A stretch of 32,000 bases of DNA from Burkholderiaceae bacterium (GTDB lineage Bacteria > Pseudomonadota > Gammaproteobacteria > Burkholderiales > Burkholderiaceae_C). Position numbers and translations under genes: made by a program. The DNA lies in assembly GCA_965234585.1 (NCBI GenBank), contig OZ248423.1, positions 1,073,884 through 1,105,883 of the forward strand, in the 5' to 3' direction. Positions within the stretch are counted from its first letter, which is position 1. Every line of letters begins with the position of its first letter. The notes below the pieces were generated by a model, which made no database searches, had not been told where the DNA came from, and worked only from the letters and a program-made list of their open reading frames with translations. Below are positions 10,940 through 26,473 of this stretch, in pieces.

Positions 10940-11947
10940 TCAGCGTTGCCAGTGGCTGCTCGCCTGGCGATGCCCTTTGTCGGGGTAAGGAGCGTCGGCC
11001 CATGCGCGCGACCAAGCCGCCAAGGCGCTGCTGGGCGGCGCTTCGCTCTGCCAAGTTGGGTGGCCTTGTTCTTGGCGCAGCGCTTCCAGCTGCGCCCACC
11101 ACAGCGCCATCTCGGGCGGCACCCACCAGCGCAGCGTGTCCGTGGTGTTGAGCGTTTGCAACCAATCGGCGAGTACCGCGGCGTGCCAAGCCAAGCGGTG
11201 CTGAGTGGCTTTTTTGGGCTTGTCGCTCAAGCCAAAACCCAAAAAGTCCAGTGCCAATACCCCAGCGTCTTGGGCAACCGCGTCGCGGTAGATCGCCGAC
11301 CAGGTGTCGGGGCCGTGCAAGGCGATGGTGTGCACCACCGCACCACGTGCTTGACCCAAGGCGTGCACACGCCAACCCGAAGCGCTGGGCAAGTCGCGCC
11401 AGAACTGGCTCCATGCCTCGGGCCAATCTATCCAGGGCACGGTCGCAAGATCGGTTCGCAGTGCGTCCTCGCGCAGCGGGTCGGGGTTGCTGCGTCGGGG
11501 TTTGAAAAAGTATTTGAGCAACTGCGCAGAGGCCTCGGCGCACACACCGCGCGTGACTTGTGTGTGGTGGTTGAGCTGGGGCTGTGCGAACAGGTCCAAC
11601 ACAGAACCCGCAGCCCCCGTGCGTGCGTCGCTGGCGCCGAACACCACCCTTGCCAAGCGGGCGTGCAGCATGGCGCCGCTGCACATGGCACAGGGCTCCA
11701 AGGTCACGTACAGCGTGCAACCGTCGAGTCGGTAGTTGCCCAAAACCCGCGCGGCTTCACGCAAAGCCACGACCTCGGCGTGCGCCGTGGGGTCTTGACC
11801 GGCGATCGGTGCGTTGCGCCCGCTGGCGATCAGCCGCCCGTCTTTGACCACCACCGCGCCCACAGGCACCTCACCCGCCACCGCCGCCTCGCGGGCTTGG
11901 GCCAAGGCCAGCCCCATCCAGTGTTCGTCGCTGAGTGCCTCGTTCAC
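10940..11947 (-). CDS. tadA: tRNA adenosine(34) deaminase TadA fused to a truncated alpha/beta-hydrolase-like C-terminal domain
   Basis: ORF 10940-12067. I prefer the GTG at 11947, which forms a GTGA overlap with the upstream stop and gives N-terminus (M)NEALSDEHWMGLALAQA, like E. coli TadA. Deaminase motifs HAE (TAHAEVVAL) and PCxxC (EPCAMCSGA) are present. About 170 extra C-terminal residues resemble the first half of haloalkane-dehalogenase-type hydrolases (LHGPDTWSAIYR, LDFLGFGLSDKP). Confidence 0.8.
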   Translation of the reverse strand: MNEALSDEHWMGLALAQAREAAVAGEVPVGAVVVKDGRLIASGRNAPIAGQDPTAHAEVVALREAARVLGNYRLDGCTLYVTLEPCAMCSGAMLHARLARVVFGASDARTGAAGSVLDLFAQPQLNHHTQVTRGVCAEASAQLLKYFFKPRRSNPDPLREDALRTDLATVPWIDWPEAWSQFWRDLPSASGWRVHALGQARGAVVHTIALHGPDTWSAIYRDAVAQDAGVLALDFLGFGLSDKPKKATQHRLAWHAAVLADWLQTLNTTDTLRWWVPPEMALWWAQLEALRQEQGHPTWQSEAPPSSALAAWSRAWADAPYPDKGHRQASSHWQR

Positions 11948-12555
11948 ACCAAGCCCATGCGTTGCATCCAATCCGCCAACGCCTGTTCGTTCGCCCCACC
12001 CGCCCGGTAGGCTTGGTACATGGCGGTATGCGATTCGGGCCGGTGTTGGTTGAGCTTGACGGCACACTGCAGGTCTTCAACATCGAGCTCAAAGGCCACA
12101 ATGGCGTGGAGCATTTTGTCGGTGTAGTCCTCGGGCAAACCGCGCCACTGATCGGCGTAGGCCGGTTCGTGGTCCCCAATGAGTTGCTTGAGCAGCGAGT
12201 CTTTGGCCGCCTCACCCTCAAGCACGCGGGCCCTCACCCGGGCTTGCACCGCCACATAGCTCCAAGTCGGTACGCGCTGCAAGTCGGTGTAGACCTTGGG
12301 CGACATGTAAGCGTGAGGCCCCATGAAGCTCACCAGTGCCATCGGGCGTTGAAGCAAATGCTTCCACTGTGGGTTGGCGCGAGCACAGTGCCCGAGCAAA
12401 CGCTGCGCACCACCGGGCTGTGTCTCCAGCCGCAGCGGCAGGTACGTCACACACGGAAAACCATCGTCGTCGGTCGTGACCAAACTGCCCAGAGGGTGCT
12501 CGCGCATGACCGCGGCTGCCTGCGCGGGTTGATCAAATTGGCGCGGAACGTACAT
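11944..12555 (-). CDS. FMN-binding negative transcriptional regulator, PaiB family
   Basis: 203 aa. Characteristic MYVPRQF N-terminus and PaiB-like length. Confidence 0.7.
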   Translation of the reverse strand: MYVPRQFDQPAQAAAVMREHPLGSLVTTDDDGFPCVTYLPLRLETQPGGAQRLLGHCARANPQWKHLLQRPMALVSFMGPHAYMSPKVYTDLQRVPTWSYVAVQARVRARVLEGEAAKDSLLKQLIGDHEPAYADQWRGLPEDYTDKMLHAIVAFELDVEDLQCAVKLNQHRPESHTAMYQAYRAGGANEQALADWMQRMGLV

Positions 12556-12976: not shown

Positions 12977-12994
12977 TCACTCCCACTTAATAGC
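12977..12994 (-). repeat. att copy A (distal): degenerate duplicate of the guaA 3' end
   Basis: TCACTCCCACTTAATAGC. Its reverse complement reads GCT ATT AAG TGG GAG TGA, which is A-I-K-W-E-stop. 16/18 identical to copy B. Lies where G+C drops. Confidence 0.75.
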
Positions 12995-13115
12995 AACGCT
13001 GTGCTACTTAACGTGTAACTGTAAAGTCAAAGCCAATTTTAAACAACTATTTTTTGGAGTTCAATATACCCCCAATAAATTGGCTAATGATTTAGAGGGG
13101 ATATAAAATTTATCT

Positions 13116-13370
13116 TTATTCGTTATTTTTTTCAAAAATAATTAGCTCGCTGTTACCAAGAGTCCAGATGCCAAGTGTCAGCACTAAAATTAACAAGCGA
13201 AATAGCAAATGTAATATGTTGAGACTCTCTGAATGAATTAGATGTAAATTCCATCCTCTCACATTCATTTCCTCTACTTTTGCTTGTAATTTACCCTTTG
13301 AGCTACCTGCTATCAATCCATATAAACCACCAGCGTAAGTGATTCTTTCAACTTGATTACTTTTTGACAT
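13116..13370 (-). CDS. Hypothetical small membrane protein (84 aa)
   Basis: ATG preceded by AAGGA. Soluble N-terminal half, then one TM helix (LNILHLLFRLLILVLTLGIWTL). No family recognised with confidence. Confidence 0.45.
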   Translation of the reverse strand: MSKSNQVERITYAGGLYGLIAGSSKGKLQAKVEEMNVRGWNLHLIHSESLNILHLLFRLLILVLTLGIWTLGNSELIIFEKNNE

Positions 13371-13505
13371 ACATTCCTTTCAAGAGTTGTAAATCCAAAC
13401 TTAGATGACTAAAAAATTCACCTTTTTCAATCATATCAAAATTGGTTACATTTTGATGACGGTTTCTTAATTAACTAAGATTTTGAGCAATAGCAAAGCT
13501 GTACT

Positions 13506-13618
13506 GCTTTACGAGTAACTTTAACTTCGCAGCCCTTAAAAATCAACAGCTTAGCGATTTTGAGAAACTTTTGTGTAAGTAGAAAACCTATATAAATCAA
13601 CGACTTAGCTTCAAAAAG
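13506..13618. repeat. Arm of element 1 homologous to the int-proximal arm of element 2
   Basis: Hand alignment to 21751-21864. Two blocks of about 50 nt match at roughly 72-75% identity (37/49 and 36/50), separated by a 15-nt unrelated stretch with a 1-nt indel. Confidence 0.7.
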
Positions 13619-13636
13619 TCACTCCCACTCAATAGT
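13619..13636 (-). repeat. att copy B (internal junction between elements 1 and 2): duplicate of the guaA 3' end
   Basis: TCACTCCCACTCAATAGT. Its reverse complement reads ACT ATT GAG TGG GAG TGA, which is T-I-E-W-E-stop. 14/18 identical to the genuine guaA end (copy C). Confidence 0.8.
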
Positions 13637-13797
13637 TACTCGACTAAAATAGTCAATTAAATCAATAGGTTGTAGTTCACAACAATATGTGTGTAACATT
13701 TGTGTAAAAATAAGGTAAGTGAAATTTTCTTAATTTTTTTCCGAAACAATACTGTAGCGCTGGTTGTAACGGAATCTAGTTACACAATAAGCAAGAA

Positions 13798-14466
13798 CTA
13801 AGCAAAAACTCTTTCACGCAGTAATAAGAATGCTTCCGCAGCAAAAAAACCCGAAGACGAACCTCGATAACGAGCTAACGCCTCGATAGAAACTCGACTA
13901 CGCGGGAACGGAAACGAGCCAACTTCAGACGAGTAAATCTCCATAGCCTTAACCTTGAGATCCAAAAACTCGGAAATATCAACAAAGACATTTGGGACAA
14001 AACTGTGGCTCGCATCTAAGCCAAACTCTGTCTCGGAAATTGTTTCATAAGATAAAACTCGCTTAATGTATGGGTAACGAAACCATTTCGTACAGCTTAA
14101 AACAGCATTATGTATTATCTTATGATCAGAATGAATATCTCCTAGATGTGGAACAAATATCTCATCAGGGCGAAACAAACTTACCACTTCTGAAATTTTT
14201 TGTACTACATCGCCAAAAGGTAAAGCATCAAGTTTCGTTGTAGGGAAACCGAGCTTATAGACTTCATCGAAATCAAAAAATCGTGTGACCTGATTGATCT
14301 CTGCTTCTCTTTCCGAGATCTTATTTTGACTCCATCCATAATCAACTTTAAGGTCGGTAGCAATTAACCAAGCAACCGAAACACCTTGGGACTTATACTT
14401 TAATATGGTCCCGCCTACGCCTAGCACCTCATCATCTGGGTGCGGAGCTACAACCAAGACTTTCAT
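13798..14466 (-). CDS. PIG-L/LmbE-family N-deacetylase
   Basis: 222 aa. Metal-site motifs VVAPHPDDEVLG and HSDH. ATGA overlap with the upstream gene (14463-14466). Confidence 0.85.
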   Translation of the reverse strand: MKVLVVAPHPDDEVLGVGGTILKYKSQGVSVAWLIATDLKVDYGWSQNKISEREAEINQVTRFFDFDEVYKLGFPTTKLDALPFGDVVQKISEVVSLFRPDEIFVPHLGDIHSDHKIIHNAVLSCTKWFRYPYIKRVLSYETISETEFGLDASHSFVPNVFVDISEFLDLKVKAMEIYSSEVGSFPFPRSRVSIEALARYRGSSSGFFAAEAFLLLRERVFA

Positions 14467-15347
14467 AAGTAGATTCCTTTAGTCACCATAAAAACAGGCT
14501 CAGTGTAAATCAACTTAATAGCTTTATCTCCACACTTAACAACCGGAAAACCTGAACTATCAATATCAACAACTTTACCTGGTTCGATATTACTAACATC
14601 ACTTACAACAACCTCGGTCTTCCAGACTTTATAATTAACTTCATTGAAATGAAACTCAGCGCCGACGTAAGGCTTCCCTAAAGCCCTAACGAGGTTATGA
14701 ATTGAGATAGCACTCATTCTCCAGTCAATTACACCGTCTTCTCTGCCTCTTTTTCTCCACGTATTAGCTTTCGAATCGTCTTGCTCGATCCTAAAGTAAT
14801 CTTTAGCTATTAGTTTAGGAAGGAACTCTTCGATCTGATCTAAAGCTTTAGAGACCACCTTGTCATAAAGCGATCGAGCATTATCATAGTCATTGATTGG
14901 AATAAAAGATTGAGAAAGAATGTCACCACTATCAGCTCCTTCATTCATAAAAAAGAAAGTGGAAGCGGTTTCCGTTAGACCTAATGCGAGCGCCCAGATG
15001 ATTGGATGACGTCCTCGATTAGCTGGCAAAGCGGCAGGGTGAAATCCGACAACACCCATTGGTGCGACGTTTAGTATTCCGGATTTCAGCAAACGTGACC
15101 AACCAAAGCAGAACACTATGTCAGGATTGAGATTAGCAATCCAATCCAATGAAGTTGGTGAATTTATATCATCGACATATAAGCTTGGGATGTTTCGTTG
15201 ATTGGAACAAACAGTCAAATCGACGAAGTCAGAGTTGAACGAAGATGCTTTTAAGGTACAGACGCCAACAACATTGGCGTCAAGAGAAAGCACTTTCTCA
15301 AGCGCCTTTAACGAGAACTCGACAGCACCAATAAAAACTATCCTCAT
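14463..15347 (-). CDS. Formyltransferase (Fmt/ArnA-N-like, probable sugar N-formyltransferase)
   Basis: 294 aa. Formyl_trans N-domain with FHPAALPANRGRHP (compare HPSLLPxxRG) and a downstream acidic loop (ADSGDIL), plus a C-terminal Fmt-like domain. ATGA overlaps at both ends. Confidence 0.8.
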   Translation of the reverse strand: MRIVFIGAVEFSLKALEKVLSLDANVVGVCTLKASSFNSDFVDLTVCSNQRNIPSLYVDDINSPTSLDWIANLNPDIVFCFGWSRLLKSGILNVAPMGVVGFHPAALPANRGRHPIIWALALGLTETASTFFFMNEGADSGDILSQSFIPINDYDNARSLYDKVVSKALDQIEEFLPKLIAKDYFRIEQDDSKANTWRKRGREDGVIDWRMSAISIHNLVRALGKPYVGAEFHFNEVNYKVWKTEVVVSDVSNIEPGKVVDIDSSGFPVVKCGDKAIKLIYTEPVFMVTKGIYL

Positions 15348-16513
15348 TTCATCCTCAAATCGTAAAATTCTTTCTTTATTAATGAGTCATATTCTACTGT
15401 GCGTAAAACATCGATGATGCGTTCCGCAGATCCACCATCACCATATGGGTTGACCACGTTTAATATTTTGTGTCGAAATACAGGTGAATAAGAATACTCA
15501 ATTGCCAACCTAATCTCTTCCTTGAGGGGCTTACAATTGATCACACTTTCACATTGAAGTCTTCCTCTCTGTCGATCACCTATGTTAACAGTAGGCTTCT
15601 TAAACGTTGGGACTTCCGCAAGTCCACTCGAAGAGTTTCCGACAACAGCATCTACCTGCGCAACACAGCTAAGATATCTTAATTGCCCTAACGAAGTAAA
15701 AGCGTAAGCGTTATTATTATTAGAAACAAAAGTTTCTATCGCACTATAAATCGCTCGGCTATCGGTATCTGAATTCGGCATTGTAAAAATTAATCCAGTT
15801 CCCTTTAAGTCAGACAATGCGCTTAACAACTCATTCATTTGAGCTAAGGAAGTCTCCTTCTCTAGCGTAACCGGATGGAAAGTAACCAGTAAATTCTTTT
15901 TTCTAAACTTCATTCCTAACGAATCTTCAAGTTCAGACTTATTTAAAAGTTTAATATTTTTTATGGCATCAACACCGAGACCACCTACATTAAAAACAGT
16001 ATCTGGATTTTCACCTAGCTGGATAACTCTATTCCGATAATCATCATTTGCCACAAAATGTAAATGCGAAAATTTCGTTATTGAATGCCTAATCGCTTCA
16101 TCAATAAGTCCTTCTGTAAGCTCACCGCCATGTAAATGAGCTATCGGGATTCTGGCAAACATAGCCGCAACCACCGCGGATAAAATCTCAAACCGATCAC
16201 CTAGAACCAAAATTAGGTCGGGCTTAAGAGAATCAAAAGAATCAGCAAATCCTAATATGCCGAGAGAAGTAGACTTAGCTAATCCCACTGGAGTGTCGGA
16301 AACAAGAACAAGATCAATTTTTCTGTCAATTGAAAAACCATCCGACTCAATCTCCTTGTATGTCTCCCCATATTTTTTCGATAAGTGGCTGCCTGTAGCA
16401 ATTAATTGAAGTTCAAACTCGGCTGAAGTCTTTATCAACCCAATCAGGCGTCGCAGAAGTCCGTATTCAGCACGAGTTCCAGTGATGACACAGATTTTTC
16501 TCTTGACTGACAT
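15344..16513 (-). CDS. UDP-N-acetylglucosamine 2-epimerase (hydrolysing), NeuC/LegG-like
   Basis: 389 aa. N-terminus KICVITGTRAEYGLLRRLI, HLHGGE and the overall layout match NeuC-type enzymes. AAGGAG sits 5 nt before the ATG. Confidence 0.85.
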   Translation of the reverse strand: MSVKRKICVITGTRAEYGLLRRLIGLIKTSAEFELQLIATGSHLSKKYGETYKEIESDGFSIDRKIDLVLVSDTPVGLAKSTSLGILGFADSFDSLKPDLILVLGDRFEILSAVVAAMFARIPIAHLHGGELTEGLIDEAIRHSITKFSHLHFVANDDYRNRVIQLGENPDTVFNVGGLGVDAIKNIKLLNKSELEDSLGMKFRKKNLLVTFHPVTLEKETSLAQMNELLSALSDLKGTGLIFTMPNSDTDSRAIYSAIETFVSNNNNAYAFTSLGQLRYLSCVAQVDAVVGNSSSGLAEVPTFKKPTVNIGDRQRGRLQCESVINCKPLKEEIRLAIEYSYSPVFRHKILNVVNPYGDGGSAERIIDVLRTVEYDSLIKKEFYDLRMK

Positions 16514-16577
16514 ACCATCTCCTTAGCATTTGTGTTGTAACGACAAGCGATATCGAGGACACGTTACCAGATAGCAC

Positions 16578-16606
16578 TTGTTTGCTCAATCAATTATATC
16601 TAGAAT
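16578..16606 (+). promoter_or_regulatory. Possible sigma70-type promoter for the hns-like operon
   Basis: TTGTTT (16578-16583), 17-nt spacer, TAGAAT (16601-16606). About 30 nt upstream of the RBS-supported ATG at 16638. Confidence 0.3.
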
Positions 16607-16637
16607 GAACCGTCAACTTAAAAAATTGGAGAAAAAA

Positions 16638-16856
16638 ATGAGCCGTATCGACGAAATCCTCGCTAAACAAAAAGCACTTGCTGATGAGCTTGAGATGGCT
16701 AAGCAAGAGGAGCGTGACGCTGTACTGAAGGACATCAAGGAGAAGATCAAGCTCTTCAACTTCAAGACTACAGACTTCAAGGGCGTACTTGCCACACGCA
16801 AGAAGCGCGGCACAGCAACACCTAAGAAGACTGTTGCTAAGCGCACAGCGAAGTAA
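16638..16856 (+). CDS. Truncated H-NS-like protein (dimerisation coiled coil plus basic tail, no canonical DNA-binding domain)
   Basis: The ORF track starts at a TTG (16578), but GGAG at 16628-16631 supports the ATG at 16638 (72 aa). MSRIDEILAKQKALADELEMAKQEERDAVLKDIKEKIKLFNF resembles the N-terminal domain of beta-proteobacterial H-NS-like proteins. It ends in RKKRGTATPKKTVAKRTAK and lacks a TW(S/T)GRG-type C-terminal motif. Confidence 0.55.
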   Translation: MSRIDEILAKQKALADELEMAKQEERDAVLKDIKEKIKLFNFKTTDFKGVLATRKKRGTATPKKTVAKRTAK

Positions 16857-16867
16857 CTTGGTGCCGT

Positions 16868-17683
16868 ATGGCAAAGGCCTTTGCTCACGTACCCGTACCT
16901 AAGTTCAGCGCAAATCACCTAGCACTCGCTGAAGTTTGTGCCATTGAGCTGTGGAATGGCTTCGACTACCAGACTGGCAAAGAGTTTGACGTAAGCGATG
17001 AAGACTTGCTTGTGATGTTTTCAACGCCTACGTTTGCGATGTACAAAAGTGCGAGAACAAGACAACAACTTACCGAGCTAGACATACGTGAACTGATACG
17101 TGTAGCAAGACTTAAAGCATTATTTCGCTCGGAACAGCCGACGGACTTTCAAGGCGCTATTGCTGCCTACAGAGCAACAGCATTAGCGACTTACACTGGA
17201 TTTAAGAAGAAGAGCTTGCCGCTAGCCAATCGCTACGACTACGCAACAAAGGCAACACTGGACTGGAGTGTTAAGTTCGTTAATAACTCAAGCGTATCGA
17301 TAAACGGAAATCACCGTGTTCCGCTAGCTTGTCGTATCTTGTTCTTTGCGATGCCAGATATGATGGTATTCAACTTTTCAAACGGCTTGGCAAAGAAAAT
17401 GCGTCTTCAGTCACGTCCGCAAGCTGCCATCCCTTACTTTAATAAACTACTTTCCGATGGATTACAGCTTAACAAAGCCTTGCTGAAGAACTTGGATATG
17501 CCTAAGCCGACAACACTAAGCGAAGATATATGGACGGCGGCGAATAAAGGCGGCTGGTGGCAGCGTCGTGTGCTTGACCTAGCTCTGCTACTTCACTTTG
17601 GACTAGTGACAGCAACACCGCAACTACAAACTAAAGGTAGGCAACTTGCGGCAAGATGGACAGCAAGAAAGAAGACGCCTTAA
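16868..17683 (+). CDS. Hypothetical protein (271 aa), no family recognised
   Basis: Starts 11 nt after the hns-like stop, so probably co-transcribed. Coding-like composition. Its stop overlaps the convergent recombinase stop in the palindrome TTAA (17680-17683). Confidence 0.6.
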   Translation: MAKAFAHVPVPKFSANHLALAEVCAIELWNGFDYQTGKEFDVSDEDLLVMFSTPTFAMYKSARTRQQLTELDIRELIRVARLKALFRSEQPTDFQGAIAAYRATALATYTGFKKKSLPLANRYDYATKATLDWSVKFVNNSSVSINGNHRVPLACRILFFAMPDMMVFNFSNGLAKKMRLQSRPQAAIPYFNKLLSDGLQLNKALLKNLDMPKPTTLSEDIWTAANKGGWWQRRVLDLALLLHFGLVTATPQLQTKGRQLAARWTARKKTP

Positions 17684-18255
17684 ACCAACTCAACAGCCTT
17701 ACGCTTCATTGCGTCATTGACGTCAATGTATGCTTGCGTGGTACTGATATTACGGTGTCCAGCTAGACTTTGTAACACCCTAACACTGACACCTTTGTCT
17801 GCTAAATTGGTGATAAAAGTTCGACGAGGACTGTGACTGGTTGCGCCTTCAATGCCGCAACTGCGGAACAAGTAATGGAAAAACTGGCAGAGCGTATTAG
17901 CTGTAAATCCGTCTGCGTCTTTCTTCTGTGTGTAAAACAGCTTGTTGGTGACAGCTTTGTAGGGGACAGCACGGACGTAAGCTTGTAGCTCTTTGCGTAG
18001 CTTGTCGCTGACAAACACTACCCTACCGTAGCGTCCTTTTGTCTGCTCTGCGTCCAAACGGATTTCACTACGTACAGCGCCCACTGCGTCGAGTATGTCC
18101 TCGTAACGCAATGCGGCGCACTCCCCTACACGCAAGCCTGCCAAATACATAGTCATAAGCATCGCTCTATTTCGGGCTGCGTGACGATGTGTAGCTACGT
18201 AGTCCAAAGCCCTACGTAGCTCTTGTGTTGTCAGTGTTTTTGTTTGCTTGGACAT
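17680..18255 (-). CDS. Small tyrosine recombinase (catalytic domain only, 191 aa)
   Basis: AAGGAGAG RBS before the ATG at 18255 (the track's 18345 start is a TTG). Catalytic signature present: GLRVGE (Arg), HSPRRTF (H-x-x-R), GHRNISTT (His), QAYIDV (Tyr). No N-terminal core-binding domain. Confidence 0.8.
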   Translation of the reverse strand: MSKQTKTLTTQELRRALDYVATHRHAARNRAMLMTMYLAGLRVGECAALRYEDILDAVGAVRSEIRLDAEQTKGRYGRVVFVSDKLRKELQAYVRAVPYKAVTNKLFYTQKKDADGFTANTLCQFFHYLFRSCGIEGATSHSPRRTFITNLADKGVSVRVLQSLAGHRNISTTQAYIDVNDAMKRKAVELV

Positions 18256-18390
18256 TAGTGCTCTCCTTAATGTAAGCTTTCCAATGTCTAAAGTGTATTT
18301 TCTTTGATTTGCTTTTCCTACCGATTTTGGCTGTACGTGCGTCAATGTTTTTTCCTCAATGATTTCAAGCGGTTACGCTATGTGATGCTT

Positions 18391-18424
18391 AAAACCAAAG
18401 CTTTTGTATATTAGCTTTGGTTTT
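18391..18424. repeat. Perfect 11-bp inverted repeat with 12-nt spacer
   Basis: AAAACCAAAGC (18391-18401), TTTTGTATATTA, GCTTTGGTTTT (18414-18424). Lies in the ORF-free region upstream of the small recombinase. Confidence 0.8.
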
Positions 18425-18756
18425 GTATTTATCGGTAAGCTGTGGCACTTGAGCAACGATTGACGCAGACTTGCGTACAAGTCCTACACGCTGTTTTTAG
18501 CTAGTCCAGCTACCCAAGCCTAGCCCAGCTCCTTTTAAGCTGTTAAAGCTTGCTGTAGCGTGTCTGTGCTCACCTCTAGTCTTCTGCTACTTCCCTACTC
18601 TGCTTGCTGTACTAGCTCACTGTGTCAGTGTTGTCTGTAATGTTTGACTGTTTCAGTGTTGTTGTTTGAGTGTTTGTGTTTTGTATAGACGTAGCAAAGC
18701 AATTAAAGCATTGCGCTTTAATGGAAAGTAGCAAAAGGCAAACTAGGCCAGTAATG

Positions 18757-19281
18757 CTATTTGACGTGCGTCCAAAGCACGTTGTCGCTGTGCTTAGCCG
18801 CTGTCTCTTTTGTTATGTACTCAAGCCAACCGCTATCCGCAATATCTTCCTTGTGCTGTTCATCTATGTGCTCAACGTACTTCTTTGCTTCGCAGACTAG
18901 CGCATCGAACTGATTAAACCTAACGTGCTTTGGCAGATTGCCAATCGCAAAGTGTAGGTGTAAGTGCTTTCCGCTACGCTCACCCTCAACGACTGGCAAG
19001 TACTTCAATGTCTTTCCGTGTCTTTTGGCTGCGTGTCCATACACAGCAATGTTCAGCTTCTGCTGAAAGCGTTGCGTAATGCGTTCGCAATCTTGCTTTG
19101 TAATCGCACGTCGAACAGTACCCTTCGGCGTTTCTTCGACGATGGTTTGCTTAAGTGTCAATGTCAAAGCCAGCGGAAAATCATTAGCCATACCGCATAT
19201 CCACGTGCGTGTAGCTGCCTTAACAGTAAGCAACGCATTTGGGTTGTAGGCAGTACGTCTGCGGATTTCTTCTAGCTTCAT
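18757..19281 (-). CDS. Hypothetical protein with HUH-endonuclease (rolling-circle Rep/relaxase)-like motifs
   Basis: 174 aa. Motif-I-like ALTLTL (nt 19153-19170), motif II HLHLHF (nt 18949-18966), motif-III-like EYITKE, i.e. Y-x-x-K (nt 18805-18822). Order and spacing are compatible with small HUH Reps. Assigned by motif only. Confidence 0.45.
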   Translation of the reverse strand: MKLEEIRRRTAYNPNALLTVKAATRTWICGMANDFPLALTLTLKQTIVEETPKGTVRRAITKQDCERITQRFQQKLNIAVYGHAAKRHGKTLKYLPVVEGERSGKHLHLHFAIGNLPKHVRFNQFDALVCEAKKYVEHIDEQHKEDIADSGWLEYITKETAAKHSDNVLWTHVK

Positions 19282-19387
19282 ATATCTATTTATCCGAAAT
19301 CAAAGGAAAGAAGAAATTTTTTGTCTGGTTGTCCTTAAGCTTTTCTGAAGCTACAGTACAAATTCCACTTTACGAAACGGAGTTTTT

Positions 19388-19828
19388 ATGAGCGCACTAG
19401 CCAAACTGAAGCTTGTCAATAGCAAGCGTAGCCGTACTGTTAGCCCTATCGTTCATCGTCGTAACAAGTTGGTTGCGAAGATTGCTGAACAGATTGAGCT
19501 GGCAACAGCACAGAAAGAAGGACGTTTGTACGCACCTAAAAAGCTTAAGACTGTTACTAACGCAGACACTTGCGAACGCCGTACTATTGAGACGACCAAG
19601 CGTGTTAAGGAATGGTTTTGGACTGCTGATAGCGGCAAGATTAACTTCAGCGTACGCTACGGCAGCAAGGTGATTGAGCTTGCTAAGGGAAAAAACGCCG
19701 TAGAAGTTGCGAATACAGACGAATTGATTGGCACGTTGTCGCTGATTAAGGAAGCGGTAACGGCTGGCGAACTCGACGAAGCAATCAACACAGCCAGCGA
19801 CAAGCTACGCTCTGGCTTTTCCAAATGA
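19388..19828 (+). CDS. Hypothetical protein (146 aa)
   Basis: GGAG RBS 6 nt before the ATG. Divergent from the HUH-like gene. Followed by a strong terminator. Confidence 0.6.
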   Translation: MSALAKLKLVNSKRSRTVSPIVHRRNKLVAKIAEQIELATAQKEGRLYAPKKLKTVTNADTCERRTIETTKRVKEWFWTADSGKINFSVRYGSKVIELAKGKNAVEVANTDELIGTLSLIKEAVTAGELDEAINTASDKLRSGFSK

Positions 19829-19836
19829 CAGCACAA

Positions 19837-19872
19837 GGGCTGGCTTAGCGTAAGTCAGCCCACTCTCTTTTT
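19837..19872 (+). terminator. Rho-independent terminator
   Basis: GGGCTGGCTTA-GCG-TAAGTCAGCCC forms an 11-bp stem with one G-U pair (19837-19861). It is followed by ACTCTCTTTTT. Confidence 0.65.
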
Positions 19873-19900
19873 CTCACTAAATAAAAGAAAAGGAGAAACT

Positions 19901-20278
19901 ATGAGGTTCTTTGAGTTTGCGGATGCGGAAGCACAGCTTGGACTTCTGCGTACGATTATTGACAACACTTGGGCAGCTATCGCTAAGCAAGCAGAGGAAC
20001 AGAAAAAGGCAGAAGCACAGCGTAAGGCTAACGCCAAGCTCAGGCCACGTAAGCGTAAGGAAAGTATGGGTAAGGCAATAAAAGTTCCTACCCCCAAGCC
20101 ACCCCCACCACCACCCGAGCCTAAAGTTGCCAACCCCCAGCACAAGCCGCAGCCTAACGCACAGCTACCCACAGCACAACAGAACCTAGCCCAGCCTTAC
20201 AACGGCGCTGTGTCTCGCCTCAATAATGCGTCTTTCGGCGCCAAATCGCACACTTCTGGCGCTGATATTGGCTTTTAA
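19901..20278 (+). CDS. Hypothetical proline-rich protein (125 aa)
   Basis: AAAGGAGAA RBS. Helical, charged N-terminal half, then a low-complexity tail (PTPKPPPPPPEPKVANPQHKPQPN). Confidence 0.55.
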   Translation: MRFFEFADAEAQLGLLRTIIDNTWAAIAKQAEEQKKAEAQRKANAKLRPRKRKESMGKAIKVPTPKPPPPPPEPKVANPQHKPQPNAQLPTAQQNLAQPYNGAVSRLNNASFGAKSHTSGADIGF

Positions 20279-20413
20279 AAAAATCTTGGTTGCGGTGACG
20301 ATAGGCATAGCAAAAATGGTATCTGTACCCTTTAATTTTTGTTGCGTAATTTTCAGCACTGAAGTACTTACGCTTTCAGCCTGGCCGTTTTTACTCACCA
20401 CCCCAACCTAACT

Positions 20414-21703
20414 TTACTTTGGAATCAGTAAGCCATCCTTATAGTAAAACTCTGGCATTGCGTTTTCAATCATCTTGCGCTCTGTTGTATGGTAGTAAGT
20501 CTTCTCAATCTGCGCTGTACTTGTGCCGCAAGTCTCTGCCACTTGCGTCGGCGTAGCGCCTCTGTTAATTCTGTCTGTAATAAAGTAATGTCGGAAGCTG
20601 TACGGCACTAAGTCCCTAGTGTCCGTTTCCTTAATCTCCGCCATCTCAACTATTTTGTCAAAGTTGTATTGGATAGCACGTGCGGTGATTGATGATGTAC
20701 CGTTTGTGCTAAAGATAAGCGTTTGAGCAAATGGGACAAAATCTTTCTTGCCTTTAGTTGCTTTGATGTATCTCGGCTGTAGCAACTTAAAAAGTTCGTC
20801 AAAGTACTCCCAATCCTTAACAACAAAGCGTCTTGTCTTCCTTACCTTTGTCGTTTCTGCTCTTACTGTAATCTTAACAAGGCTGTAGGTTTCGTCTTCC
20901 GCTTTGCCTTTTACATTCTTTTGCATCCACTCAATGTCACACCAGCGTAGCTGTAACTGTTCGCCTCTGCGTAGTCCAGTGAGTATAGAAATCAGCAAGT
21001 AGTAGGCTGTAACAGCTTTGGTTATGTTACCTTTTTCGTTAATCGCTGCCTTTGCGCTAGCGATGTACGCCTCAAGCTTAGTCTTAATATTTACGATTTC
21101 TTCGTCCGTAAAAGTGCTTCTGCGTAGTGCTTCGTCACCTCTGTCTATGCGCTTTAATGGCTTAAAGTCAAAGCTGTCGATATACGTTTCGTTTCGCTTG
21201 TACAACCACGCCATCATTGCGTTAATCGTACTCTGCTCGTTAGCTACAGTCGTTTGACTGACATTAAGGCTACGCTTTGTTTTCGTGCGACTATGGAGAT
21301 AGTTTTCGCAATCAGTACGTTCCATCTCCTTAAGCTTAGTGTCACGCCCAATGTAGTTGAGCCAGTGCTCCAAGTGCGTTTTAATTGTTCCGTAACGTCC
21401 TTTAACGATAAGCTCAGCCTCGACGTCCTTAGCCCTCTGCTTTAAGTATTCCTCTACGCCTTGCTTAGCTGTCTTTGAGAAGTAAGTCTTACCAGCCAAC
21501 TGTTGCGCCATCAGTTCGTGATAATGCTTCTTAGCTTTGTCTATCGCCGTATCTCTATTTCTCGTACGTAGGCTAAATCGTGCGTACTTATTTTCCTTAG
21601 CGAGCCACATACGCATCTGCCAATACTCACCCCTTCTATACACGACAGCTTCGTCGTAGATTGGGATTTCGTCGTCGTTGTATGACTGTTTTTTGAGAGG
21701 CAT
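20414..21703 (-). CDS. int: Tyrosine integrase (site-specific recombinase, guaA-adjacent)
   Basis: ORF 20414-21775 begins at a TTG inside the conserved arm repeat. The first ATG is at 21703 (429 aa), so the start is uncertain. Catalytic residues present: GLRRGE, YSFRHYF, and the Tyr in IEKTYYH. Confidence 0.85.
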   Translation of the reverse strand: MPLKKQSYNDDEIPIYDEAVVYRRGEYWQMRMWLAKENKYARFSLRTRNRDTAIDKAKKHYHELMAQQLAGKTYFSKTAKQGVEEYLKQRAKDVEAELIVKGRYGTIKTHLEHWLNYIGRDTKLKEMERTDCENYLHSRTKTKRSLNVSQTTVANEQSTINAMMAWLYKRNETYIDSFDFKPLKRIDRGDEALRRSTFTDEEIVNIKTKLEAYIASAKAAINEKGNITKAVTAYYLLISILTGLRRGEQLQLRWCDIEWMQKNVKGKAEDETYSLVKITVRAETTKVRKTRRFVVKDWEYFDELFKLLQPRYIKATKGKKDFVPFAQTLIFSTNGTSSITARAIQYNFDKIVEMAEIKETDTRDLVPYSFRHYFITDRINRGATPTQVAETCGTSTAQIEKTYYHTTERKMIENAMPEFYYKDGLLIPK

Positions 21704-21750
21704 ATGGCGCTTAGAGTGACTACGTTTTTGAACGGCTACAGCTTTGTGTA

Positions 21751-21864
21751 GCTTTACGTGTAACTTTAATGCCAACGCCCAACTAAATCAACAACTTAGT
21801 TGGGCGTGTGTCTGTTTTGTGTAACTGCAAATTCTATATAAATCAATAACTTAAGTTAGAATTT
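21751..21864. repeat. int-proximal arm of element 2 with repeated motifs
   Basis: Contains two units, each TGTAAC followed 20-26 nt later by AAATCAAYRRCTTAG-like sequence. Homologous to 13506-13618. Confidence 0.7.
21776..21806. other. Perfect 11-bp stem / 9-nt loop hairpin between int and the guaA stop
   Basis: CGCCCAACTAA-ATCAACAAC-TTAGTTGGGCG. Located 59 nt downstream of the guaA stop on the minus strand, so it may act as an island-supplied terminator or as a protein-binding site. Confidence 0.5.
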
Positions 21865-21882
21865 CTACTCCCACTCGATGGT
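21865..21882 (-). repeat. att copy C: genuine 3' end of guaA at the island junction
   Basis: CTACTCCCACTCGATGGT. Its reverse complement reads ACC ATC GAG TGG GAG TAG, which is T-I-E-W-E-stop. Shares the ACTCCCACT core with copies A and B. Confidence 0.85.
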
Positions 21883-23475
21883 CGCAGGGGGTTTTGAGCT
21901 CACGTCGTAGGTCACGCGGTTGATGCCGCGCACTTCGTTGATGATGCGCCCCGAGACTTTTTTGAGCAGCGCGTACGGCAGCTCGGCCCAGTCGGCGGTC
22001 ATGAAGTCGCTGGTCTGCACCGCACGCAAGGCCACCACGTAGTCGTAGGTGCGGCCGTCGCCCATCACGCCCACGCTCTTTACCGGCAAAAACACGGTGA
22101 AGGCCTGGCTGGTGAGGTCGTACCAAGTCTTGCCAGTATCGTCGGTGAAGTTGCGCAGCTCTTCTATGAAGATCGCGTCTGCACGGCGCAGCAGGTCGGC
22201 GTATTCTTTTTTGACTTCGCCCAAAATCCGCACGCCCAAACCGGGGCCTGGGAAGGGGTGGCGGTAGACCATCTCGCGGGGCAAGCCCAGCGCCACGCCC
22301 AGCTCGCGCACCTCGTCTTTAAACAGGTCACGCAAAGGCTCGAGCAACTTCAAGCCCAGCTGCTCGGGCAAGCCGCCCACGTTGTGGTGGCTCTTGATGG
22401 TGACGGCCTTTTTGCTTTTGGCTCCGCCCGACTCGATCACGTCGGGGTAAATCGTGCCTTGGGCCAAGAAGGTCGCGCCCTTGTGTCCTCCGCCACCAGC
22501 TTTGAGTTTGGCGGCCTGTTCTTTGAACACATCCACAAACAAGCCGCCGATGATTTTGCGTTTGGCTTCGGGCTCGCTCACACCGGCGAGCTTGCCCAAG
22601 AACAGATCGCTGACGTCCACGCGGATGACCTTAGCGTGCAGCTTGCCCTCGAACATCTCCATGACCATGTCGCCTTCGTTTAAGCGCAACAAGCCGTGGT
22701 CCACGAACACGCAGGTGAGTTGGTCGCCGATGGCGCGGTGGATCAGCGCGGCGGCCACGGACGAATCCACACCGCCGGACAAACCGAGGATGACTTCTTC
22801 GTCACCGACCTGTTCTCGGATCTTGGCCACGGCCTCTTCGATGTAGTCGCCCATGACCCAGTCTTGGCGGGCTTGGCAAATGTCGAGTACGAAGCGGTTG
22901 AGCAGCGCCTGGCCTTGCACGGTGTGCGTGACTTCGGGGTGGAACTGCACGGCGTAAAAGCGGCGGGCCTCGTCGGCCATACCGGCAATCGGGCAAGCCG
23001 GTGTGGAGGCCATGACTTTGAAGCCCTCGGGCATTTGGGTGACCTTGTCGCCGTGGCTCATCCACACCTTGAGCATGCCGTGGCCTTCGGCCGTGGCGAA
23101 GTCTTCGATGCCTTTGAGCAATTCGGTGTGGCCGTGCGCGCGCACCTCGGCGTAACCGAATTCGCGCGTGGTGCCCGCCTCGACCTTGCCGCCGAGTTGC
23201 TGCGCCATGGTCTGCATGCCGTAGCAAATACCCAGCACCGGCACGCCGAGCTCAAACACCGCGTCGGGCGCTTTGTCGTCCACCTCGTACACGCTGGCGT
23301 GGCTACCCGAGAGGATCACGCCCTTGAGCTGACCGTCGGCGGCGAACTCGCGCACCCAATCGCTGCTCACGTCGCAGGGGTGAACCTCACAATACACATG
23401 CGCCTCGCGCACGCGGCGGGCAATGAGTTGGGTGACTTGCGATCCGAAGTCGAGGATGAGGATCTTCTGGTGCAT
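21865..23475 (-). CDS. guaA: GMP synthase (glutamine-hydrolysing)
   Basis: 536 aa from the ATG at 23475 ([13 protein letters not shown]). GATase domain and ATP-PPase motif SGGVDSS. Universal C-terminus KPPATIEWE. Confidence 0.97.
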
Positions 23476-24944
23476 CAATCAGCCCGGTAGTTCGGTGCTT
23501 CTTTGGTGATTTGCACGTCGTGCACGTGGCTCTCGCGGATGCCGGCAGTGGTGATTTCGACGAACTCGGCCTGGTTGCGCATGTCTTCGATGGTGGCGCA
23601 GCCGCAGTAACCCATGCTGGCGCGCAGGCCGCCGGCCATTTGGAAGATGATGGACACGACCGAGCCTTTGTAGGGCACACGGCCTTCGATGCCTTCGGGC
23701 ACGAGCTTGTCGGCGTTGGGGTTGCCGGTGCTGCTTTCTTGGAAGTAGCGGTCAGCGCTGCCTTGCTGCATGGCGCCGATGGAACCCATGCCGCGGTAGC
23801 TCTTGTAGCTGCGGCCTTGGAACAAGATGACTTCGCCCGGCGCTTCTTCGGTGCCAGCGAACATACCGCCCATCATCACGGTGCTCGCGCCCGCAGCGAT
23901 GGCCTTGGCGATGTCACCGCTGTAGCGAATACCACCGTCGGCGATCAGGGGCACGCCGGTGCCCTTGAGCGCCGTGGCCACGTTGTCCACGGCCATGATT
24001 TGTGGCACGCCCACGCCGGCCACGATACGGGTGGTGCAAATCGAGCCGGGGCCAATACCAACCTTTACGCCGTCGGCACCGGCTTCGACCAAGGCCAAAG
24101 CCGCCGCGCCAGTGGCGATGTTGCCGCCGATCACTTCAATGTGTGGGTAGTTTTGCTTGACCCAACGCACGCGGTCGATGACACCTTTGCTGTGGCCGTG
24201 CGCGGTGTCGACCACGATGGCGTCCACACCGGCGCGGGCCAGCGCTTCCACGCGCTCTTCGGTGCCCTCACCCACGCCCACGGCCGCGCCCACGCGCAGC
24301 TTGCCAGCGGCGTCGCGCGCGGCGTTGGGGAAGTTGAGTTGTTTGGTGATGTCTTTGACGGTGATCAGGCCCTTGAGCTCAAAGGCTTCGTTGATCACGA
24401 GCAATCGCTCAAGTTTGTGTTTGTTGAGCAGGTGCTTGGCTTGCTCGGGCGTGGTGCCTTCGGGCACGGTGATCAAGCGATCACGCGGGGTCATGATTTC
24501 GCTGACTTTTTGGTCGTAGCGGGTCTCAAAGCGCAAATCGCGGCCCGTGACAATGCCCACCACTTGGCGGCCGTCGCAAACGGGAAAGCCCGACACACCC
24601 AGCTCCACGCTGAGGGCCATGACTTGGCGCACAGTGGTGTCCGGGGTGATGACCACCGGGTCGCGCAAGACGCCGGATTCGTAGCGCTTGACCTTGGCCA
24701 CGTGCGCGGCTTGTTCTTGCGGGGTGAGGTTTTTGTGCACGATGCCGATGCCGCCCTCTTGCGCGATGGCGATGGCCAAACGGGCTTCGGTCACGGTGTC
24801 CATGGCCGCGGCGACCAGGGGCAAATTCAATAGGATGTTGCGGGTGAACTGGGTGGCCAGCGAGGTGTCCTTGGGCAGGACTTGGGAGTATGCGGGGACC
24901 AACAAAACGTCGTCGAAGGTCAGTGCTTTGCCGAGAAGGCGCAT
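23475..24944 (-). CDS. guaB: IMP dehydrogenase
   Basis: 489 aa. [10 protein letters not shown]-terminus, CBS pair, catalytic loop [11 protein letters not shown]. Stop and start with guaA share 1 nt (TGATG). Confidence 0.97.
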
Positions 24945-26397: not shown

Positions 26398-26473
26398 TGG
26401 TAGGACGTACTGGGGTCGAACCAGTGACAAACGGATTAAAAGTCCGCTGCTCTACCAACTGAGCTAACGTCCC
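26398..26473 (-). tRNA. tRNA-Lys (anticodon UUU)
   Basis: Minus-strand 76-mer GGGACGTTAGCTCAGTTGGTAGAGCAGCGGACTTTTAATCCGTTTGTCACTGGTTCGACCCCAGTACGTCCTACCA. 7-bp acceptor stem (one G-U), D and T arms fold, anticodon loop CTTTTAA, encoded CCA. Confidence 0.93.

Follow-up and report, generated by a model that had tools for sequence, protein, structure and literature searches.

Legionaminic-acid (Leg) loci equipped with a deacetylase and a formyltransferase (noted very recently), genomic islands that target the guaA gene, and mobile elements that convert the serotype of their host are each already known singly. In the present study we analyze a locus that has affinities with all three. It lies in a 32,000-nucleotide stretch (hereafter, the window) of contig OZ248423.1 from a Burkholderiaceae bacterium, where three coupled genes, coding for a NeuC/LegG-like epimerase, a formyltransferase-like (Fmt-like) protein and a PIG-L-family deacetylase, make up the entire cargo of an island of 8.2 kb (13637-21866) that is inserted at the 3' end of guaA. 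We favor, with moderate confidence, the view that this trio is a LegG-Fmt-PIG-L sub-operon that was captured as sole island cargo and acts as an N-acyl-editing plug-in dependent on the legionaminic-acid pathway of its host.

The nearest counterparts of the trio are found in Leg loci (LegB, LegC, LegH, LegG, LegI and LegF, plus PtmE) that also carry a deacetylase and a formyltransferase; there, homologous genes follow one another in the same LegG-Fmt-PIG-L order. Candidatus Kuenenia stuttgartiensis has a Leg-type cluster with both additional genes, and its CMP-nonulosonic acids have one amine left free and one that is N-formylated (bioRxiv 10.64898/2026.04.20.719630). In Halorubrum sp. PV6, legG is co-transcribed with an adjacent predicted formyltransferase gene and the glycan ends in 5-N-formyl-legionaminic acid (PMC6137143). 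By analogy, the chemistry to be expected from the window trio would likewise yield N-formyl or free-amine legionaminic acid. The likeness to the Kuenenia and Halorubrum systems is one of gene content. What sets the window apart is that LegB, LegC, LegH, LegI, LegF and PtmE are all absent from it and that the block resides on a mobile island. Two other systems also determine N-acyl identity at the precursor level. The ptmG and ptmH genes of Campylobacter jejuni are extra genes among the core leg genes, and their products alter the N-acyl substitution of legionaminic acid (acetamidino, N-methyl) at that level (bioRxiv 10.64898/2026.04.20.719630); unlike the trio, they belong to unrelated enzyme families with a different chemistry and are not mobile as an isolated unit. 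PseJ (PDB 6ci2, 6ci4) has a formyltransferase fold, as does the Fmt-like protein, and decides which N-acyl group a nonulosonic acid will bear while the sugar is still nucleotide-linked. The two proteins are only distantly related (E 3e-6): PseJ has a single domain and acts on a 4-amino group that is already free, so that it can do without a deacetylase, whereas the Fmt-like protein possesses a C-terminal domain, is partnered by a PIG-L protein and lacks the catalytic Asn.

The three genes lie on the minus strand (Table 1) and, as proposed in the initial annotation, are coupled to one another behind a single AAGGAG ribosome-binding site. The NeuC-like gene ends in ttg agg atg aaa TGA where the Fmt-like gene starts with ATG agg ata, and the latter ends in tac tta TGA where the PIG-L gene starts with ATG aaa gtc, each junction being a 4-nt ATGA overlap. 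All three open reading frames (ORFs) are intact, with zero internal stops. The family assignments, made originally from visible motifs, were upheld by searches with profile hidden Markov models (HMMs; Epimerase_2, TIGR03568, Formyl_trans_N/C and PIG-L). The epimerase scores 484.3 bits against TIGR03568 NeuC_NnaA (cutoff 235.9), with residues 5-370 of 389 covered, and matches Epimerase_2 (PF02350) at E 3.6e-90. Its best match in the PDB extends over the full length of the protein and is the hydrolyzing GDP/UDP-N,N'-diacetylbacillosamine 2-epimerase (5zlr/5xvs; E 8e-97, 328 bits); among other solved relatives, human GNE reaches 173 bits and the bacterial WecB-type UDP-N-acetylglucosamine (UDP-GlcNAc) 2-epimerases at most 54 bits. 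The protein is predicted to be of the LegG (diacetylbacillosamine) type, both in its hydrolyzing activity and in its substrate specificity. The Fmt-like protein contains Formyl_trans_N (PF00551) and Formyl_trans_C (PF02911) domains, each above cutoff at 64 bits, and is similar to the N-domain of ArnA (E 9e-37) and to Fmt; it falls below every NCBIfam equivalog cutoff and is thus not ArnA, Fmt or any named equivalog. The deacetylase matches PIG-L (PF02585) at E 2e-23 (83.7 bits, cutoff 28.2) and carries the motifs APHPDDE (residues 7-13) and HSDH (residues 112-115). Its relatives in the PDB are TT1542, diacetylchitobiose deacetylase (aligned across both motifs) and BshB, and it scores under the BshB and MshB equivalog cutoffs.

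The Fmt-like protein has some 6000 homologues of about 294 aa, and a scan of one genome per species found relatives in 414 species, spread over many phyla and the Archaea. We surveyed the neighborhoods of the best 80 Fmt-like loci by tblastn with reference Leg proteins and counted genes in the 47 of them whose flanks reach 6 kb or more in either direction. NeuB was present within 10 kb in 44 of the 47 and NeuA in 42; a PIG-L gene was adjacent in every one (47/47) and a contiguous NeuC-Fmt-PIG-L block was found in 38. The typical order is LegB-LegC-PglD-NeuB-NeuC-Fmt-PIG-L-PtmE-like nucleotidyltransferase, with NeuA further on; elsewhere, the trio sits between LegI (NeuB) and the PtmE-like nucleotidyltransferase. 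The trio is, in other words, a core sub-operon of a widespread variant of the legionaminic-acid locus and not an odd mix of genes. By established chemistry, legionaminic acid owes its N5 acetyl group to the C2 N-acetyl of GlcNAc, and changing it requires deacetylation followed by re-acylation. That the group can be replaced only in this manner explains the obligatory pairing of PIG-L with Fmt in all 47 loci.

These data also bear on two other substrates that one could envision for the trio. The first, put forward in the initial annotation, is the UDP-GlcNAc pool itself. In that case the epimerase would make N-acetylmannosamine, which would then be deacetylated and formylated, and cell-wall precursor remodeling or an abortive-infection-like defense might be the outcome. 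TIGR03568 does span true UDP-GlcNAc NeuC enzymes, and defense systems occupy the same slot in sister islands (see below). However, the best structural relative of the epimerase is the diacetylbacillosamine-specific LegG type, by the margin in bit score given above, and the family context is the legionaminic-acid locus in 44 of 47 cases; furthermore, the cassette has no sensor or regulator, and none of the 10 island proteins scanned (p125 excluded) matched a defense model of PADLOC-DB v2. We regard action on UDP-GlcNAc as highly improbable. The second possibility is a product made independently of NeuB. Together with a bacillosamine-type pathway of the host (LegB/LegC/PglD or PglFED), the trio might generate a 2-formamido or 2-amino 2,4,6-trideoxyhexose destined for another glycan or released as a free metabolite. 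Three loci from metagenome-assembled genomes of Pseudomonadota and Rickettsiales (L017, L018 and L024) would suit such a route, having the six-gene set PglD-LegB-LegC-NeuC-Fmt-PIG-L while tblastn of their flanks picked up neither NeuB nor NeuA nor a PtmE-like gene (the flanks cover 10 kb in both directions for L024, 10 kb downstream for L017 and less than 1 kb downstream for L018); NeuB may lie elsewhere in these genomes. A hydrolyzing 2-epimerase, on the other hand, frees the sugar from its nucleotide, a gene for re-activation is absent, and NeuB is adjacent in 44 of the 47 loci; we find this route improbable. Editing within the legionaminic-acid pathway is the reading that we retain in what follows.

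The carrier of the trio is an integrative element with a copy of the guaA 3' end at either border, as direct repeats that share an 8-nt core, GAGTGGGA. The low-GC block ends at the guaA stop codon (21865-21876); this sequence comes back as a direct repeat at 13619-13636 and once more at 12977-12988, and the trio therefore lies inside the 8.2-kb element. Reading from guaA on the minus strand, the order is integrase, p125, DUF6641, Rep-like protein, small tyrosine recombinase, p271, p92, NeuC-Fmt-PIG-L and the distal attachment site (attL). The closest described element is GIsul2, which targets the 3' end of guaA with the core 5'-GAGTGGGA-3' (PMC9376610). GIsul2-type islands share with the window island the target gene, the 8-nt core, the position of the integrase beside guaA and the flanking direct repeats. 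In both systems, extra internal or tandem att copies define sub-units that have no integrase: CR2-sul2 in GIsul2, and, in the present system, the mini-element of L001 described below and a remnant at 12977-13636. The backbone of the window island, with its DUF6641 protein, Rep-like protein, small recombinase and p271, is different from that of GIsul2. So is the cargo, which is sul2 or arsenic resistance in GIsul2-type islands and glycan tailoring or restriction-modification in the window and its sister islands. A tblastn search of PLSDB plasmids with the window integrase returned one irrelevant match of 22%, the GIsul2 int gene not being confirmed as present in PLSDB; we therefore claim only a shared target and core with GIsul2, not membership of the same family. 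Several other origins or roles were considered for the island and given up. Integration linked to a tRNA gene was rejected, the only tRNA gene (Lys, 26398-26473) lying far from the island. As to a phage or satellite origin, neither p271 nor the Fmt-like protein gave a match among IMG/VR viral contigs, and PHROGs matched only the recombinases and DUF6641, so that a recognizable prophage was set aside as well. A role of p92 as an H-NS-like silencer, suspected from its sequence, was dropped for want of Pfam or PDB support.

The window island is not the only mobile carrier of the trio. The same three genes adjoin guaA-type att repeats in hosts of 24% (L001), 55% (L106) and 60% GC (the window). In L001, a 161-kb metagenomic contig from a host of about 24% GC, the trio (35-39% GC) comes directly after guaA and is followed by the guaA-end repeat AAGTGGGAGTAA. 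This unit spans 3.2 kb between guaA and the repeat, with no integrase and no Leg genes within 10 kb; it is 72% identical to the window at the nucleotide level over 2.7 kb, and its guaA-proximal arm matches both arms of the window island. It reads as an integrase-less mini-element of the same system. A locus 91% identical to L001, L104, has an intact NeuC-like gene of 395 aa; its candidacy as the full parent island of L001 was rejected, as no att motif was present and the downstream gene matched nothing in the loci compared. In L106, the end of the trio is followed by the arm and by GTAACTATTGAGTGGGAATAG (attL), at which point the GC content jumps from 40% to 55%. A neighbor-joining tree of Fmt-like proteins groups the window, L001 and L106 copies in one clade, where they are intermixed with the locus-embedded P0001, P0003 and P0005. 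The island-borne copies have diverged to 71-79% aa identity. In the closest relative, P0001 (93% aa identity), the next genes are a PtmE-like gene and an epimerase, the arrangement seen in ordinary loci. On the P0005 contig (JGI 3300059473), the neighbors of the trio are a DUF1153 gene and an ORF in which HTH_Tnp_1 is joined to an Epimerase_2 fragment, beyond which lie NeuB and PglD; it looks as though the trio had entered a Leg locus already present there, in association with an insertion sequence, and had disrupted the NeuC of that locus. It had been recognized at the outset that such trios might always be embedded in complete loci, the window copy being just a fragment of one. This is mostly the case, as shown by the nearby NeuB in 44 of 47 loci, but a sub-clade recurs as sole cargo. 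Since this recurrence is delimited by guaA-type att repeats in the window, L001 and L106, the window copy is not just a random fragment. A separate arrangement was observed on an Alphaproteobacteria chromosome (OZ253937.1; L015, 7580-13101), where Fmt-like and PIG-L genes without NeuC lie 850 bp downstream of guaA at a GC content of about 60%, against 64% for the host; next come genes for a deaminase and for an Mrr-type restriction endonuclease, the latter of low GC content. It looks like an old, ameliorated, guaA-linked two-gene orphan.

The significance of the cargo becomes clearer when sister islands are considered. A p271 scan yielded 15 metagenomic relatives, to which a few look-ups were added, and the cargo could be read in 13 related islands. 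The arrangement guaA-int-p125-DUF6641-Rep-recombinase-p271-p92-[cargo]-attL is found in the longer metagenomic relatives and in Vibrio cholerae; the integrase (by guaA), the Rep-like protein, the small recombinase and DUF6641 are conserved in sister islands, and in all of these the cargo slot begins, on its inner side, at p92. A repeat of the GAGTAACTATTGAGTGGGAGTAG type, as at attL, closes L090, L092, L094, L095, L097, L099, L100 and L106. Wherever a contig includes both ends of an island, the attL-type repeat is present, and the cargo is therefore well delimited between p92 and attL. Four of the 13 islands carry type II restriction-modification systems, pairing AlwI with a D12 methyltransferase (L093), SinI with a C5 methyltransferase (L095), XhoI with an N6/N4 methyltransferase (L099) and Eco29kI with a C5 methyltransferase (L100); methyltransferase-like genes are found in L103. 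Eight islands carry other incomplete sets for glycan or nonulosonic-acid tailoring. Thus, L089 combines PIG-L, Fmt-like and GNAT (PseH-like, below cutoff) genes with one unassigned gene and PseI (488 bits, cutoff 340), and L092 and L094 both have DUF218, a Formyl_trans_N protein and PseI, the PseI matches across sister islands scoring 486-488 bits against the same cutoff. The slot of L090 contains KAS III-like, SDR, acyl carrier protein, PglD-like N-acyltransferase, AMP-ligase and a further SDR gene; that of L091, a polysaccharide deacetylase and a GNAT-like protein; and that of L097, a 593-aa Acyl_transf_3 (OafA-like) protein. In the V. cholerae island (L107; JACYRV010000002.1, 7590-16541), which was found at guaA via a member of the p271 90%-identity cluster that is itself 92% identical by the backbone start codon, a DUF4910/DUF2172 protein accompanies an AAC(3)-like (Antibiotic_NAT) N-acetyltransferase. 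The slot alternates, then, between classical phage defense and incomplete sets for late steps of amino-sugar and nonulosonic-acid tailoring.

These properties inspire comparison with the prophages and islands that bring about seroconversion through gtrABC-dependent glucosylation or Oac/OafA O-acetyltransferases (PMC9558356). There too, an integrative element carries a small, incomplete glycan module that needs the pathway of the host, and the Acyl_transf_3 gene in the L097 slot offers a parallel to Oac/OafA. The difference lies in the level of action. Seroconverting systems work at or across the membrane on polysaccharide that has already been assembled, whereas the trio would rewire precursor synthesis before transfer; the characterized members of the trio's families are cytoplasmic, and by analogy the trio proteins may be so too. 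The general idea of the initial annotation, a glycan-tailoring module riding on an integrative element, is borne out by the island and by the cargo of its sisters. Its more specific suggestion of serotype conversion or phage masking has gained indirectly from the restriction-modification and OafA-like genes in the same slot and retains the status of a conjecture. It is possible, though doubtful, that the pattern is more general: small guaA-targeting elements across the Alpha-, Beta- and Gammaproteobacteria might swap restriction-modification modules for late-step nonulosonic-acid modules such as LegG-Fmt-PIG-L, PseI with a formyltransferase-like gene, or acyl-ACP/PglD sets. These would redirect a legionaminic- or pseudaminic-acid pathway already present in the host toward another N-acyl variant, in which case precursor-level editing would be a horizontally traded anti-phage trait and the trio a self-contained N-acetyl-to-N-formyl switch with a dedicated LegG that takes the edited nucleotide sugar.

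If the trio is an editing branch, how might it work? The host would have to provide the nucleoside-diphosphate (NDP)-linked sugar 2,4-diacetamido-2,4,6-trideoxyglucose (diNAcBac), along with LegI, LegF and a transferase. The PIG-L enzyme would strip the C2 N-acetyl group from NDP-diNAcBac, and the Fmt-like enzyme would re-acylate the resulting amine, most likely with a formyl group from N10-formyl-tetrahydrofolate. The co-transferred LegG paralogue would then hydrolyze and epimerize the edited nucleotide sugar to a NeuB substrate of the 6-deoxy-mannose type, which would be passed to the LegI, LegF and transferases of the host. As a result, 5-N-formyl (or 5-amino) legionaminic acid would replace Leg5Ac7Ac on flagellin, lipopolysaccharide (LPS), capsule or S-layer. 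The benefit might consist in altered phage recognition, the same selective niche as that of the restriction-modification systems in sister islands. Editing at or around the LegG step is favored because the PIG-L/Fmt pair travels with its own LegG while LegI is not part of the mobile unit. In the initial annotation, the order was release from the nucleotide followed by deacetylation; our data neither support nor refute that order, which may be the reverse.

A number of points weigh against this scheme. The order of the steps and the need for a dedicated LegG are read from gene linkage. The putative phage-recognition benefit is argued from the neighbors in the slot and from general knowledge of seroconversion. 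The 32-kb window supplies no substrate for the trio and consumes no product of it. With LegI of the related Burkholderiaceae genome ZE-4 as bait, the 2,433,530-bp host contig was not among the best 120 of at least 8000 matches, a result that is uninformative either way. A scan for promoters and terminators around the trio gave counts no better than those for shuffled sequence, and the PADLOC-DB scan mentioned above was likewise null. Finally, the cargo is not always maintained. In L001 (8814-8860), an A11 tract after the NeuC ATG puts the start one base out of frame, where A10 would restore MSPSQAELPSKKKICVV; the cause may be decay of the gene, phase variation or an error in assembling the homopolymer. 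In L106 (1058-1725), the PIG-L gene is frameshifted and called as two ORFs of 116 aa and 101 aa, which suggests cargo decay or a sequencing error.

Some of these points would be accounted for if the trio were an inert hitch-hiker, that is, a Leg-locus fragment from an earlier host of about 38-40% GC, functionless now and heading for decay. The pathway is incomplete, with no partner genes in the window; two of the other mobile copies are damaged, and the ordinary-locus setting of P0001, at 93% aa identity, is compatible with recent capture. The state of the window copy speaks otherwise: its three ORFs are intact, with catalytic motifs and ATGA coupling retained, and dN/dS values calculated against the L004 trio (81-84% identical) are 0.14 for the NeuC-like, 0.17 for the Fmt-like and 0.16 for the PIG-L gene. 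Moreover, just these three genes are found at guaA-type att repeats in hosts of 24, 55 and 60% GC, at 71-79% aa identity, and the presence of the same precise unit in divergent hosts implies long retention or repeated capture. Sister islands, too, carry coherent late-step nonulosonic-acid sets. On balance, we consider an inert passenger somewhat unlikely and continue to favor a functional editing branch.

A further reservation concerns the active site of the Fmt-like protein. In the alignment to ArnA, the catalytic N102 faces G101 (motif G101-F102-H103), while the counterparts of H104 and D140 are kept as H103 and D139; the Asn-His-Asp triad of ArnA (N102/H104/D140) is thus incomplete. The FHPAALPANRG motif from which the protein was initially recognized as Fmt-like conceals this Asn-to-Gly substitution, and G-F-H replaces N-x-H family-wide: G101, H103, N110, H114 and D139 are invariant in 44 of 44 aligned relatives (alignment A1), the additional invariant residues N110 and H114 sitting in LPANRGRHP. 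Formyl transfer to an amino sugar is accordingly an expectation drawn from homology and is not secure. The fold and the two domains speak for the formyltransferase step originally proposed, and the Gly in place of the canonical catalytic Asn speaks against it. The sugar might be edited while the Fmt-like protein moves another group or serves, without catalysis, as a scaffold or in substrate channeling, the product being a free-amine or otherwise N-substituted legionaminic acid. Besides the Gly, which occupies the position of ArnA N102 and Fmt N108 in all 44 members, and the extra invariant residues, the free amine among the Kuenenia CMP-nonulosonic acids would fit such a role. Yet the family has conserved two residues of the triad, H103 and D139, along with its folate-binding-type fold and C-terminal domain, and N-formyl legionaminic acids are known in organisms with a formyltransferase gene in or beside the leg genes, so that we judge this variant quite improbable. 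Whichever group is transferred, a large, phylum-spanning formyltransferase-like family without the textbook catalytic Asn is a worthwhile target for enzymology.

In composition, the trio stands apart from both its carrier and its host. Its GC content is 40.0% (33-36% at third codon positions, GC3), against 45.5% for the island backbone (GC3 46-49%) and about 60% for the host (guaA GC3 82%). These differences, along with the variation of the cargo slot among sister islands, bear out the initial proposal that the trio was acquired separately. The accompanying claim that the cassette is the most AT-rich part of the window stands only in part: the trio is compositionally distinct from the carrier, but GC content is lowest (30-33%) in the non-coding spacer and remnant element at 12989-13797 and not in the trio genes. 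That remnant belongs to a decayed tandem element at 12977-13636, made up of a third att copy, GTTGCTATTAAGTGGGAGTGA, and the 0.65-kb stretch 12989-13636. It has no integrase, has kept an integrase-proximal-type arm (13500-13636, 66-74% similar to 21745-21882) and looks like an integrase-less unit that could possibly be mobilized in trans. The orphan status of the trio was likewise confirmed, in that tblastn with two reference sets found no NeuB, NeuA, LegB, LegC or PglD homologue in the 32-kb window; such calls can overlook divergent genes, although the same queries do find Leg genes in 38-44 of the 47 genomic loci. The window is not a complete legionaminic-acid locus, as defined by a synthase, CMP-synthetase, dehydratase, aminotransferase and N-acetyltransferase. 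A search with the Fmt-like protein showed no second copy on the host contig among the best 120 matches, and the host probably has no second close copy. Housekeeping genes make up the flanks, among them those for YceG, Tmk, HolB, TatD, transporters, TadA, GuaA, SmpB, RNase G and Tol-Pal proteins. Between guaA and SmpB lies a gene that the source annotates as IMP dehydrogenase, whose product shares a 90%-identity cluster with that of a Limnohabitans strain. The ORF at 10940-12067 codes for 375 aa and includes the TadA-type deaminase domain at residues 46-192; its C-terminal extension, some 180 aa long, matches nothing in Pfam. About 900 bp and two small genes separate this ORF from the outermost att copy, at 12977.

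Table 1. Features of the guaA island and its borders, in window coordinates
Feature	Position	Strand	Basis or remarks
Rest of decayed second guaA-type element	12977-13499		GC 32.6%; third att copy AAGTGGGAGTGA at 12977-12988
ORF in decayed second element, 84 aa	13116-13370	minus	
Integrase-proximal-type arm of decayed second element	13500-13618		66-74% similar to 21745-21864; repeat families D1, D2
attL, distal site	13619-13636	minus	guaA-end direct repeat ACTATTGAGTGGGAGTGA, core at 13619-13630; repeat comparison
PIG-L/LmbE-family de-N-acetylase, 222 aa	13798-14466	minus	PF02585 and metal-site motifs
ArnA/Fmt-like two-domain formyltransferase homologue, 294 aa	14463-15347	minus	Formyl_trans_N and Formyl_trans_C
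Putative LegG/NeuC-type hydrolyzing NDP-sugar 2-epimerase, 389 aa, first trio gene	15344-16513	minus	HMM and PDB match
AAGGAG ribosome-binding site	16519-16524	minus	read from sequence; 5 nt ahead of NeuC-like ATG (16513)
p92, 92 aa, backbone, divergent from trio	16578-16856	plus	tblastn synteny in L089-L100 and L103; no Pfam or PDB match
p271, 271 aa, backbone	16868-17683	plus	copies at least 90% identical in many metagenomes and Vibrio cholerae
Small tyrosine recombinase, 221 aa, backbone	17680-18345	minus	Phage_integrase 7.9e-28
Possible iterons, between small recombinase and Rep-like gene	18607-18675		28-nt direct-repeat pair and TGTTTGAsTGTTT twice; suggested by repeat families D6, D8
Rep-like protein	18757-19281	minus	weak REP_ORF2-G2P match, 2e-5, 25 bits, below cutoff 27.8
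DUF6641 backbone protein	19388-19828	plus	PF20346 7e-15
Island integrase, 453 aa, a tyrosine recombinase; first gene after guaA	20414-21775	minus	Phage_integrase 1e-11; phrog_1 integrase 4e-27
attR core, genuine guaA 3' end	21865-21876	minus	sequence; GAGTGGGAGTAG, ...ATCGAGTGGGAGTAG, encodes ...EWE and stop
guaA (GMP synthase), integration target	21865-23478	minus	GATase, NAD_synthase and GMP_synt_C domains

Nonulosonic acids such as legionaminic and pseudaminic acid cap flagellins, LPS, capsules and S-layers, and their N-acyl groups are major determinants of phage and immune recognition. To our knowledge, how this N-acyl diversity originates and spreads is poorly understood. What is new in the present case is the combination: a precise, three-gene branch for precursor-level editing as the sole cargo of a small integrative element that crosses class boundaries, with sister elements carrying analogous partial pseudaminic-acid or acyl modules or restriction-modification systems. 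No description of such a mobile trio was found in the literature searched. Should our reading be correct, N-acyl identity would be switchable by a 2.7-kb, three-gene plug-in on an 8-kb island that moves between bacterial classes and occupies the same genomic niche as restriction-modification systems. Serotype conversion would then extend from decoration at the membrane, as by gtr and oac, to the rewiring of a pathway at the precursor level. Such a switch would also offer a concrete, testable route by which bacterioplankton of fresh and marine waters might come by the micro-diversity of their surface glycans.

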